Positions 2,805-61,022 of a stretch of 64,000 nt of DNA are shown one piece after another. Numbering within the stretch: position 1 is the stretch's first letter; each line of letters begins with the position of its first letter. The stretch is from an uncultured Burkholderiales bacterium (lineage in GTDB: Bacteria > Bacteroidota > Bacteroidia > UBA8524), in contig CAZUIT010000012.1 in the NCBI GenBank assembly GCA_964620355.1, forward strand, positions 1,070 to 65,069. The letters are read 5' to 3'. Both the position numbers and the translations under genes were made by a program. A model generated the notes under the pieces. It saw nothing but the letters and a program-made list of their open reading frames with translations, did no database searches and was not told the origin of the DNA.

Positions 2805-3722
2805 TTAACCCAAATACCTTCTGCGTACTAAATTGGCTAGTTCGAGGAAGTTTTTATCCTCATCATCCCATTTGTGTTCGGAGCGCAGATCATGGAGGTA
2901 GCTAAAGGCCTCATCACCTGATGTGAGGTTATTCATGTGGTGGATAGAGTAGGCGTATTTCTCCACGTTCCCAGCGAATAGCGCGTTGATGAACTCGAAT
3001 TTTTTGGCGATGCTGATGGCCTTCTTCAAGTCGTTGATAGGCGTATTGCTGAATTTATGCGCCAGGTCATTCGCTTCTTCTTCATTATTGGCACCCTTGA
3101 TGGCGTCGGCTTCAACTTTGGCTTCAGCGGCTAGGACCTTTTCTTCTGAAGGGGTTTCCTCTTCGACAGGCTCAGAGACCGGTTTCGTAGAGGTATTGGG
3201 TTCTGGGTTTTGGGTTCTGGCAGGGGTTTCCTCTTCGACAGGCTCAGAGACCGGTGCTGCGGGGGTTTCGGGTTCTGGGTTTTGGGTTTGGGTAGGGGCT
3301 TCCTCTTCGACAGGCTCAGAGACCGGTGCTTCAACCTCAATCTCTTCGACAGGCTTGGAGACCGGTGCTTCAGCTTCAATCTCTTCGACAGGCTTGGAGA
3401 CCGGTGCTTCAACTTCAATCTCTTCGACAAGCTCAGGGACCGGTGTCTCCTTCTCAACCTTAGGGCTTACAGCAATAGGCTCCTCTTTAATTTTCGTTGA
3501 TTCTAAGCCATGGTCTGCGGTCAACGGACTATGGTCTGCCGTCTTCTCCTTCATCACCAATCTTAACCGATTCACCTCTTCATACAAGTCAATGGTATGC
3601 TTACGCAGCAAATCGATATCGAGAACAGATACATCGTTCCGGGTTTTTAGGTCGGCATTAAGTTGGGAAATTTGAGCCGTTAAAGCCGCAATCGATTCGT
3701 GGGTATTATTTCTGTTCGCCAT
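2805..3722 (-). CDS. Hypothetical protein: N-terminal coiled coil, acidic Pro/Glu repeat linker, conserved-looking C-terminal domain
   Basis: ORF 2805-3779, probable ATG at 3722 (MANRNN). C-terminus DLKKAISIAKKFEFINALFAG...LVRRRY resembles a Bacteroidota hypothetical family. Confidence 0.8.
   Translation of the reverse strand: MANRNNTHESIAALTAQISQLNADLKTRNDVSVLDIDLLRKHTIDLYEEVNRLRLVMKEKTADHSPLTADHGLESTKIKEEPIAVSPKVEKETPVPELVEEIEVEAPVSKPVEEIEAEAPVSKPVEEIEVEAPVSEPVEEEAPTQTQNPEPETPAAPVSEPVEEETPARTQNPEPNTSTKPVSEPVEEETPSEEKVLAAEAKVEADAIKGANNEEEANDLAHKFSNTPINDLKKAISIAKKFEFINALFAGNVEKYAYSIHHMNNLTSGDEAFSYLHDLRSEHKWDDEDKNFLELANLVRRRYLG
3159..3443. repeat. Six in-frame copies of the REP-like motif CTCTTCGACA(G/A)GCT(CA/TG)G(A/G)GACCGG, encoding PVS(E/K)PVEE and PVPELVEE
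   Basis: Copies at 3159, 3231, 3303, 3342, 3381 and 3420, with 72-bp and then 39-bp periods. Confidence 0.9.
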
Positions 3723-3837
3723 GTGCTTGTACTTGTACCGAACAAAATTAAGCCCGTCATTTGCATTGACTCCATGCAAGGGCCATTATTAATACACATT
3801 GGAATGTGCAGAAAGGAGGGAAGCAAGAAAAAGCAGT

Positions 3838-14861: not shown

Positions 14862-14965
14862 GGCTGAGGTTCCCGCCTTCGCTGAAAAAGCCGTGGCGGA
14901 CGCAGAAGGTTGAGGTCGAGGCTGAGCTTAAGTACGGTCTCTAAGCTTGTCGAAGAGTGAGACGG
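14862..14965. repeat. Intergenic repeat mosaic: 6-mer array, REP-like CCGCCTTCGC..GC..TGGCGGAC, and CGGTCTCTAAGCTTGTCGAAGAG
   Basis: Read directly from the sequence; the same motifs recur at 3159-3443, 16949, 29221 and 60758. Confidence 0.75.
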
Positions 14966-34420: not shown

Positions 34421-34480
34421 TCTCAAATCTCAATCTCGAAATCTCGAAACCTCGATAAGTCGAAATCTCGTAAAGTCGAC
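34421..34480. repeat. Octamer-like microrepeat (TCTCGAAA)n
   Basis: tctcaatctcgaaatctcgaaacctcgataagtcgaaatctcg; same family at 51177-51237. Confidence 0.7.
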
Positions 34481-34527
34481 CTGTCGATTCGTATATTTGG
34501 CTGAACCAATTGATAAACCATGCCCTT

Positions 34528-49620: not shown

Positions 49621-49674
49621 CTGTGGACTGTCGACTGTCGACTGTGGACTATTTCAAACTATGGTCTATGGTCC
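49621..49674. repeat. Heptamer microrepeat (CTGTGGA/CTGTCGA/CTATGGT)
   Basis: ctgtggactgtcgactgtcgactgtggact...ctatggtctatggtc; same family at 56320 and in the CDS at 3509-3538. Confidence 0.75.
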
Positions 49675-50986: not shown

Positions 50987-51176
50987 AGCAGTGATTTAAT
51001 ACCACAAAAGTAAATGCACCGTTTCGGTTAGTCCCTTGACTAAAGTTAAGAAAGCAGGGGGGAGGTTTTTTTGCTCTGCACTCCACGCTCCAACGCGCAC
51101 TTTCTTTGAATCGGAGAGGGTGGTTTCGTAGGTTAGTAAGTAGGTGGTTTTGGACTGACAATCTGGAGTCTGTTTA

Positions 51177-51237
51177 TCTCGAACTCTCGAAACCTCGCAA
51201 TCTCGAACTCTCGCAATCTCGAACTCTCGCAATCTCG
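51177..51237. repeat. Octamer microrepeat (TCTCGAAC/TCTCGCAA)n
   Basis: About 7-8 tandem units. Confidence 0.8.
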
Positions 51238-56223: not shown

Positions 56224-56310
56224 TCGTCTCCGCCTATGGTCTGCATCCCGGATTAGACGGCTTTAAGGATTTCACGGATTTTGTTTGAAAGAGATACCAC
56301 CAACGCAAAC

Positions 56311-56574
56311 TTTTTTTGCTGTGGTCTGTGGTCCGTCGACCGTGGACTTTGCTAGTAGCCTTTTCCCTCCGCTCCACTAGCGTTCCGTTCGGGATGACGG
56401 CTGGCTAATAACTCAACATTCTTTTTTGCCGTGGTCGGAGGTCCGTCGACCGTGGACTTTGCTAGTAGCCTTTTCCCTCCGCTCCACTAGCGTTCCGTTC
56501 GGGATGACGGCTGGCTAAAAACTCAACATTCTTTTTTTGCCGTGGTCGGTGGTCCGTCGACCGTGGACTTTTTT
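56311..56574. repeat. About 2.4 tandem copies of a 110-bp mosaic (heptamer palindrome plus REP)
   Basis: gctagtagccttttccctccgctccactagcgttccgttcgggatgacggctggctaa is identical at 56351 and 56461. Confidence 0.9.
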
Positions 56575-60505: not shown

Positions 60506-60518
60506 AGGGCACGGCTCA

Positions 60519-61022
60519 TTTTGACGCGGAGGCGCTGAGGCGCAAAACTATTGATGTCGCGAGAGTAAATGCGCAATGTGTTTGTCGTAGTTTAGGATTT
60601 AGACTTGGCTTATGATAGCGTCGCGGAGCATATTGACGCGGAGGCGTGGAGGCGCAAAAAATTTACTGTCGCGAGAGTAAATGCGCAATGTGTTTGTCGT
60701 TGCTTAGGATTTAGACTTGGCTTATGATAGCGTCGCGGAGCATTTTGACGCGGAGGCTCCACCTTCGCATACGCTATGGCGGACGGGGACGGAGGCGCAT
60801 AGGGTGTTGCTTTCGCCAGAATAAAAGGCGCAATGTGTTTGTCGTTGATTAGGATAGCGTCGCGGAGTAAAAAAAGGACGCGGAGCCGCTGAGGCGCAAA
60901 ATAATTGCTGTCGCGAGAGTAAAGGCCCTCCTTCGCCGAAAAGGCCCACACCTTCGCATACGCTTCGGCGCACGCGGTCGGCGGACGGGGACGGAGGCGC
61001 AAAGGCGCGGAGGGTGTTGCAT
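60519..61022. repeat. Degenerate tandem array (112-bp period) with embedded REP-like elements
   Basis: tgtcgcgagagtaaatgcgcaatgtgtttgtcgt at 60555 and 60667; gacgcggag.cg..gaggcgcaaaa recurs; REP inserts at 60758 and 60927. Confidence 0.88.

Follow-up and report, generated by a model that had tools for sequence, protein, structure and literature searches.

Locus and gene conservation

The DNA analysed here (the window; 64,000 nucleotides from an uncultured bacterium of the Bacteroidota) carries on its minus strand a gene, at 2805-3722, for a predicted protein of 305 amino acids (aa), the disordered acidic linker of which is the subject of this study. As had been proposed from a reading of the bare sequence (hereafter the first-pass annotation), the linker is made of repeat families, recognizable at the DNA level, that are mostly non-coding elsewhere in the genome, and it is lineage-specific between conserved termini. 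The gene and the parts of its product are the following (all coordinates without a contig name are window positions):

2805-3722, minus strand: gene for a predicted protein of 305 aa without a named family (open reading frame, ORF, with its ATG at 3722 and its stop codon at 2805-2807)
3537-3722, minus strand: N-terminal helical hairpin, residues 1-62 (AlphaFold2 and alignment)
3084-3533, minus strand: disordered acidic linker, residues 64-213 (AlphaFold2 and alignment)
2808-3065, minus strand: C-terminal helical domain, residues 220-305 (AlphaFold2 and database relatives)

The gene is real and conserved in Bacteroidota, since relatives with conserved ends are present in many genomes and its predicted folded ends enclose a disordered middle. 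Of 41 genomes given a six-frame search, 34 had a relative (the window's own, all 14 others of its family, and 19 of the 26 drawn from further families of the class), the matches in several same-genus genomes falling into separate N-terminal and C-terminal pieces. In an alignment of 19 sequences the invariant columns were confined to residues 1-53 and 219-302, the middle being unalignable and devoid of conserved columns. AlphaFold2, run on this same alignment, placed helices at residues 2-27 and 33-62 (block-mean predicted local distance difference test, pLDDT, of 85-98 over residues 1-60) and a helical domain at 220-305 (block means 63-92 over residues 221-305, and 76-92 from residue 231), with pLDDT below 50 at residues 64-99, 101-106 and 109-213. 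The disordered part includes the stretch singled out by the first-pass annotation (3159-3540) except for its final seven bases (3534-3540). Across 20 database relatives the C-terminal domain shows 60-100% identity. For the 305-aa protein, Pfam held no family, NCBIfam gave weak low-complexity matches only (E 0.11 or worse), Foldseek against the PDB returned no match at E<=0.001, and a search of the ESM Atlas yielded only Bacteroidota clusters labelled 'hypothetical protein'.

Several database entries and orthologs carry an N-terminal extension of about 19 residues (NANDGLNFVRYKYKH), and the corresponding stretch is conserved in the genus. This upstream stretch holds TAATTTTG at 3743-3750 (minus strand; 21-28 nt before the ATG at 3722), which fits the Bacteroidetes -7 promoter motif (TAnnTTTG); the conservation upstream of the ATG may therefore be that of a promoter rather than of coding sequence. 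Furthermore, three ORFs in other frames run across the linker (2986-3675, plus strand, 229 aa; 3131-3457, minus strand, 108 aa; 3210-3500, plus strand, 96 aa), which are by-products of repeat units poor in stop codons and could be miscalled as genes.

Repeat families of the linker

Three kinds of DNA repeat make up the linker: a 24-nt unit with a short hairpin, hexamers, and two families of heptamers. Repeats were counted across the window's own genome (G000; 3.87 Mb in 123 contigs), in which coding sequence (CDS) was delimited by a purpose-written gene caller based on ORFs and codon usage (3009 genes, 88.8% of bases); this proxy CDS set is not an annotation. The copies within the linker, together with the intergenic sites of the window that serve as comparators, are listed below.

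3420-3443, minus strand: hairpin unit copy 1 (PVPELVEE), 2 mismatches; core identical to the intergenic consensus
3381-3404, minus strand: hairpin unit copy 2 (PVSKPVEE), 2 mismatches; stem positions decayed
3342-3365, minus strand: hairpin unit copy 3 (PVSKPVEE), 2 mismatches (24-mer search)
3303-3326, minus strand: hairpin unit copy 4 (PVSEPVEE), exact 24-mer
3231-3254, minus strand: hairpin unit copy 5 (PVSEPVEE), exact 24-mer
3159-3182, minus strand: hairpin unit copy 6 (PVSEPVEE), exact 24-mer
3303-3445, no strand assigned: 39-bp tandem array of 3.7 copies, each a hairpin unit and a hexamer-like spacer (Tandem Repeats Finder, 91% matches)
3150-3330, no strand assigned: 72-bp tandem array of 2.5 copies, each a hairpin unit and AACCC-type heptamers (Tandem Repeats Finder, 88% matches)
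3509-3536, plus strand: four in-phase heptamers, three of which fit YRYGGWC; antisense reads DHSPLTADHG (one of 14 such arrays in proxy CDS)
3263-3290, plus strand: run of GGGTTNN heptamers, minus-strand reading TQTQNPEPET (pattern search, Tandem Repeats Finder)
3198-3218, plus strand: run of GGGTTNN heptamers, minus-strand reading within ARTQNPEPNT (pattern search, Tandem Repeats Finder)
14906-14957, plus strand: intergenic comparator, a hexamer array (14906-14926) followed by a hairpin unit (14934-14957, 3 mismatches)
49621-49673, plus strand: intergenic comparator, heptamer arrays of CTGTCGA (4.3 copies) and CTATGGT (2.1 copies) (Tandem Repeats Finder)
56310-56571, plus strand: intergenic comparator, 110-bp unit in 2.4 copies, the units beginning with YRYGGWC-type heptamers (Tandem Repeats Finder)

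The first-pass annotation had described the 24-mer as occurring six times in the linker, each time encoding PVSEPVEE, and once more in intergenic DNA near 14935. All of these copies were recovered, with 0.00 expected from 100 shuffles, and the only ORF overlapping the copy at 14934-14957 is one of 57 aa on the opposite strand; the common peptide applied to three of the six copies, two others reading PVSKPVEE and one PVPELVEE. Its statement that AACCC-type heptamers encode TQTQNPEPET was likewise confirmed by the GGGTTNN runs at 3198-3218 and 3263-3290, which account for two of the three such runs in the proxy CDS of G000. The two remaining likenesses stood for the families but not for the literal strings. 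The 13-mer ATTGAGGTTGAAG, which had been matched to the hexamer array at 14908, differs from 14909-14921 at 3 positions, and this match is at chance level, since the window holds 40 of that quality as against 25.9 +/- 5.6 in shuffles; the GARGYT hexamer family itself is mostly intergenic (14 arrays versus 3). Similarly, the 27-mer behind DHSPLTADHG, which had been related to heptamers at 49621 and 56320, has no second match in the window at up to 3 mismatches, but the segment does belong to the YRYGGWC family. Strict pattern counts in G000 (three or more units, with reversed-pattern controls) were as follows:

GARGYT hexamers: 14 intergenic, 3 in proxy CDS; control 0 and 0
YRYGGWC heptamers: 24 intergenic, 6 in proxy CDS; control 0 and 0
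GGGTTNN heptamers: 11 intergenic, 3 in proxy CDS; control 1 intergenic and 0 in CDS

When it was enough that 3 of 4 in-phase units fit, the YRYGGWC arrays rose to 87 (73 intergenic and 14 in proxy CDS; reversed control 0). Tandem Repeats Finder reported 332 period-7, 280 period-8 and 90 period-6 arrays in this genome, with 231 of the 332 period-7 arrays outside proxy CDS; for the commonest units, the arrays outside proxy CDS were 30 of 33 for ACCATAG, 21 of 26 for ACCATGG, 9 of 11 for AACCTC and 6 of 7 for AACCTT. Arrays of period 6-9 occupy 3.24% of intergenic bases versus 0.26% of coding ones. The 382 bases of the linker contain 30 12-mers that occur at least three times in intergenic DNA (median coding window 0, 99.9th percentile 19), which puts the linker in 6th place among 13,355 coding windows.

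Other arrays of the window are of related build. A second long-unit intergenic array (60517-60757; 112 bp in 2.2 copies) resembles that at 56310-56571 in that the units of both begin with heptamer or octamer repeats, and octamer arrays of the ATCTCGAA type lie at 34421-34487 and 51176-51237; units of this last family adjoin intergenic hairpins on contigs C39, C43 and C52.

The hairpin family in the genome

In G000 the 24-mer is present in 9 exact copies and in 31 at up to 4 mismatches, over many contigs, the exact form being common to five loci. With up to 1 mismatch allowed, its 15-nt core (CTGAGCTTGTCGAAG) is found 31 times (about 0.3 expected by arithmetic), 16 of the copies being intergenic and 15 within proxy CDS. 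The bases that flank the core pair with each other in 15 of the 16 intergenic copies, in all four pair types, whereas only 3-11 of 16 pair once the partner is slid by 1-2 positions; the second pair out from the core is formed in 15 of 16, and beyond the fourth pair no more than 7 of 16 are. As the pairing covaries beside the core and then drops further out, we read the unit as a short stem around a constant loop (a covarying stem of about 4 bp and a loop of 11 nt, with CCGKTM before it). Five of its six reading frames lack stop codons in 27 or more of the 31 copies, and the sixth contains TGA in all 31. Inverted pairs of the unit are present on contigs C66 and C14.

A micro-array of period 6-9 lies within 80 nt of 7 of the 16 intergenic hairpins, as compared to 13.9% of intergenic bases, and an inspection of the flanks by eye found hexamers, octamers or GGGTT heptamers adjoining many of them. 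On these grounds the hairpin with its micro-array is a usual intergenic composite of this genome, and the linker is of like make-up. A second dispersed element, of about 30 nt, gives LNSSGARGQDD-like peptides in frame in three proteins (9 hits at up to 6 mismatches, five of them intergenic; sites at contig C3 148941, contig C70 15062 and 15296, and contig C71 8004); the stretch at 14877-14903, before the intergenic hexamer array of the window, is possibly related to it.

Orthologous linkers

The DNA of the orthologous linkers was read codon by codon in five genomes of the same genus and one of a sister genus, their lengths ranging from 79 to 165 aa. The linkers of G005 and G001 open with clean ACCATGG-type heptamers (TIDHGPWTME) at the place where G000 has DHSPLTADHG (followed, in G001, by a run of N); they then carry the hairpin core with 1 mismatch, in frame 0, where it encodes PVLSLSKE (all six copies of G000 being in frame 1), and continue with hexamer-like VEAEAEVEA and AACCC heptamers (TQNPEPITQNPEP). 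In the linker of G004 a perfect hexamer array is accompanied by AACCC heptamers, with no hairpin; that of G003 has only hexamers, and that of G002 little of any repeat family. Because two orthologs read the hairpin in another frame, what the same-genus orthologs share is the DNA element and not the peptide.

Searched against its own genome, the linker of G005 matched 49 other places and that of G004 15, whereas G013 (a family-level relative of a different genus, with a P/V/E-rich linker) gave 0. The expectation of the first-pass annotation, that termini would be conserved while each linker matched the repeats of its own genome, was therefore borne out within the genus (G000, G005 and G004) and failed outside it (G013). 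That the P/V/E-rich repeat linkers of family-level orthologs find no genome-wide matches speaks for a simpler view, in which this is an ordinary low-complexity acidic linker with tandem repeats of its own that resembles intergenic DNA by coincidence or composition; the chance-level match of the 13-mer can be added in its favour, as can the units of 39 and 72 bp, which are divisible by three like those of ordinary coding minisatellites. We regard this view as very improbable, given that shuffles predict zero 24-mer matches and that the reversed-pattern controls stay at 0 or 1; the rank of the linker among coding windows, taken together with the shuffles and the core controls, contradicts it.

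The unit in other proteins

The hairpin unit is not restricted to this gene. In G000 it lies in frame in FtsH, within the C-terminal tail that follows Peptidase_M41 (last residue of the domain, 650), and in an ABC-F ATPase, where it comes after the second ATPase domain and before ABC_tran_CTD (596-662); HsdS reads it antisense after its first specificity domain (domains by Pfam). An unnamed protein on contig C71 has two in-frame copies, and a repeat protein split over the ends of contigs C56 and C70 also carries the unit in frame. It is precisely at the hairpin sites that congeners diverge in the ABC-F linker and in the FtsH tail: the ABC-F linker of G005 has DSDHGPLTIDHG, and those of G003 and G002 are shorter and without recognizable elements.

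Two of these loci have further peculiarities. Contigs C56 (1-564) and C70 (14705-15730) both end inside one 72-bp repeat array (ENDIPVSEPVEEIEVEPLSLSGEL), neither half having a Pfam family, and are probably two halves of one gene left unjoined by the assembler. The six-frame match to ABC-F crosses one or two stop codons in the loci L031 (G005) and L032 (G001), with an open frame over the C-terminal part; these stops could come from a shift of frame or from misassembly close to the linker with its repeats.

Length alleles and assembly

Three lengths (244, 281 and 305 residues) occur among database proteins whose C-termini show 100% identity over the region searched; the 305-residue form is listed as 324 from an upstream TTG. 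These alleles, identical at their ends, are set apart by exact numbers of units, either one of 39 bp together with two of 72 bp or a single one of 72 bp (both lengths being multiples of 3), and a related species shows 4 versus 6 copies of a 9-residue repeat. The alleles all come from short-read assemblies. The description of the linker as 'tunable' by the first-pass annotation goes beyond the evidence; it receives soft support from differences in whole repeat units, which could be the product of assembly collapse.

The contigs of four public sequencing runs fragment across 3154-3460 into pieces of 32-102 bases, the loose ends of which run into other sequence (the flank piece X9 begins at 3382), and two consensus strings from these contigs match, by eye, the flanks of contigs C66 and C71. 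Since the run contigs are too short to bridge the arrays, the copy number rests on the assembly. The sequencing runs listed for this sequence include none of RNA. Such fragmentation, the two contigs of G000 that end inside a similar array, and length alleles that may be collapsed assemblies are what would be seen if the metagenome assembler had joined reads of different repeat loci, leaving a linker (or a copy number) that is not that of the cell. We consider an artefact of this kind improbable: the frame is open throughout the linker between two conserved domains, all linker pieces are covered by contigs in all four runs, and five separately assembled genomes of the same genus have linkers of like make-up.

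Distribution of the hairpin beyond the genus

The core was found in 28 of 41 related genomes (reversed control 0 in all), from which it follows that the hairpin family is older and wider than the linker. Public genome records (one genome per species) were scanned with the 24-nt pattern CCGNTCNCTGAGCTTGTCGAAGNG, of 21 fixed bases, for which about 0.3 chance matches are expected by arithmetic. The pattern occurred in at least 120 stretches among the matches listed, in which Actinomycetota, Chloroflexota, Bacteroidota, Latescibacterota, Desulfobacterota, Planctomycetota, Spirochaetota, Saccharibacteria and others were represented. In 108 copies (80 loci among the matches listed) the pair of variable bases was C-G in 67, A-T in 23, G-C in 15 and unpaired in 3. 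A filter for loci below 55% G+C with an open frame of at least 200 aa was passed by 18 of at least 151 hits; in the seven filtered frames scanned with Pfam, the unit lies between Exo_endo_phos and GDPD (L132), inside a stretched Formyl_trans_C (L148), or before or between domains (four frames), the frame of L044 having no family.

No recurrent neighbour gene emerged around some 120 hairpin loci among the matches listed, the largest cluster of similar ORFs comprising only 8 loci, at least 7 of them in Microbacteriaceae (Plantibacter, Agreia). Rfam gave no match in the window at the gathering score, and a single chance-level match (E 0.18, to an unrelated small RNA) at E<=1 in six hairpin-rich loci; a search of the accessible literature by sequence string found no paper with the core or its translations as text. 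The 24-nt hairpin element is thus of multi-phylum occurrence and apparently uncatalogued. It is conceivable, though we hold it to be doubtful, that CCGNTCNCTGAGCTTGTCGAAGNG represents an undescribed translatable stem-loop element that has repeatedly seeded or extended disordered linkers across bacteria, its loop perhaps being kept constant among phyla by a host factor common to them or by a mobiliser of broad host range, and that the present linker is one amplified example. A hairpin shared by many phyla may explain many of the odd low-complexity inserts in database proteins.

Origin of the linker

The kinship with repeats at the DNA level, the disorder, the conserved ends and the differing frames of the orthologs are all observed, and we give a probability of roughly 75% to the following reading: this is a conserved two-domain protein, the disordered spacer of which is encoded, in this genus, by mostly intergenic repeat families that were captured and then amplified. 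The most likely course is that repeat DNA was captured and amplified in a spacer that tolerated it. A composite of repeats would have entered the linker in an ancestor of the genus, and would have been tolerated because the region has no fold and the hairpin unit is stop-free in five of six frames. Later growth and change may have proceeded by duplication of the 39-bp and 72-bp units and by small indels that shifted the frame locally, and exchange with other copies probably also contributed. We infer the direction (from non-coding to coding), the mechanism of entry, and a selection that would act only on an open frame, length and acidity. Two terms of the first-pass annotation are not retained: 'selfish' micro-elements goes beyond the evidence, as no link to a transposase was found, and 'exapted' claims more than the role of a spacer, which is all that can be deduced.

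Several observations weigh against this reading. Every division into intergenic and CDS copies rests on the proxy, ORF-based gene call, and the linker is known from DNA alone, its protein being predicted. The hairpin core (at up to 3 mismatches) is absent from both loci of G000 with PF01797, the family of the Y1 transposase or REP-associated tyrosine transposase (RAYT; REP, repetitive extragenic palindrome). The order of repeats (YRYGGWC heptamers, hairpin, hexamers, AACCC heptamers) is identical in G000, G005 and G001; much of the linker was thus inherited and not newly assembled in each species, and this shared order suggests that the composite was probably already present in the common ancestor of the three, with later duplication, loss and local changes of frame. 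To these points is to be added the make-up of the coding copies. The loop reads GCCTG in 11 of 14 distinct coding copies as compared to 2 of 16 intergenic ones, and one of these two (contig C1 5550) adjoins a run of N and may itself be coding. The coding copies thus form a distinct subtype that may spread among coding regions and not from the intergenic pool; this subtype, along with the exact 24-mer at five loci, suggests that they were perhaps copied from one another.

Pressed further, the same evidence would reverse the direction: a coding 'linker cassette' of PVSEPVEE and its flanks would have arisen in proteins and been passed among disordered regions by recombination, seeding some of the non-coding copies. 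The subtype, the nine exact 24-mers at five loci and the sense orientation of 14 of the 15 proxy-CDS copies agree with such a history. On the other hand, the hairpin family (28 of 41 relatives, many phyla) is far wider than these proteins, its intergenic copies are more diverse and have a covarying stem, proteins read the unit in three distinct ways, by frame or by orientation, and selection on a peptide cannot yield a heptamer periodicity. We judge the reversed direction unlikely, and retain the capture of mostly intergenic repeats followed by their amplification.

A link to RAYTs was considered for the linker hairpin and rejected, neither of the two Y1 transposase genes of G000 being flanked by it. 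A different hairpin is found at one PF01797 gene (L021, contig C10 9756-13103), which has three copies of a GCCCTTTCAGGGC-like unit within about 400 nt upstream; this looks like the classical REP-RAYT arrangement and is unrelated to the linker hairpin.

The locus offers a clean example, at the DNA level, of a disordered linker whose sequence can be traced to repeat DNA and not to selection for a particular peptide. The element that encodes PVSEPVEE in one species yields PVLSLSKE in a relative, and heptamer arrays, unable to keep the frame when they slip, are frozen in coding sequence. It is also of consequence for annotation, as linkers of this kind fragment assemblies and give rise to long ORFs in the other frames that are spurious.

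Comparison with known systems

Among the known systems closest to the hairpin unit are the REPs of the GTAG and CGTC super-families, which end in GTAG or CGTC and, according to PMC3733652, have a stem of 8-9 bp with a loop of 4-5 nt. That source describes REPs inside ORFs, known from several phyla, as a minority of mostly intergenic short hairpins (clusters encoding 43-82 aa in Thauera and R. conorii), and CGTC repeats in Bacteroidetes with no linked transposase (Di Nocera et al. 2013, PMC3733652). The likeness lies in short hairpin repeats, some of which are wholly inside ORFs of known proteins. Set against those descriptions, the stem of the present unit is about 4 bp and its constant loop 11 nt, and inspection by eye showed CGTC immediately before the unit in only 2 of 16 intergenic copies. 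The terminal tetranucleotide, stem, loop size and RAYT flanking of REPs are all lacking in the hairpin unit.

The heptamer component has a parallel of its own. Cyanobacteria carry short tandemly repeated repetitive (STRR) heptanucleotide sequences. Heptamer arrays in cyanobacteria, Beggiatoaceae and some Bacteroidetes, unevenly distributed among bacteria and mainly intergenic, are reported in PMC4679880, which also summarises the 'long simple sequence repeats' (long SSRs) of Mrazek et al. 2007. As with STRRs and long SSRs, the arrays of G000 consist of short head-to-tail 7-nt units and are mainly intergenic, with three or more units per array; the linker has one YRYGGWC and two GGGTTNN arrays. 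They differ in that members of these families here lie within a protein-coding frame, despite a 7-nt period that three does not divide, and in units other than TAACTGA.

In its behaviour, the hairpin unit resembles the Rickettsia palindromic elements (RPEs), which, according to the review PMC10969869, measure about 150 bp and are confined to Rickettsia. Both are dispersed palindromic repeats that lie between genes and also in frame in unrelated genes, adding a peptide where the fold tolerates it: the present unit has 16 intergenic and 15 proxy-CDS copies (FtsH, ABC-F and HsdS among the genes concerned), and its insertion sites are a linker with pLDDT below 50 and, in FtsH and ABC-F, positions outside domains. 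It departs from them (the comparison being by description only) in its 24 nt and 4-bp stem, its occurrence in many phyla, its tandem amplification and its heptamer and hexamer partners; by size alone, as described, a 24-nt unit falls outside RPE-1 to RPE-10 proper, whose units of about 150 bp encode a conserved peptide. Taken together, the hairpin unit works like an RPE yet belongs to neither the RPE nor the REP families, from which it is set apart by their descriptions, and it extends an RPE-like pattern to free-living Bacteroidota.

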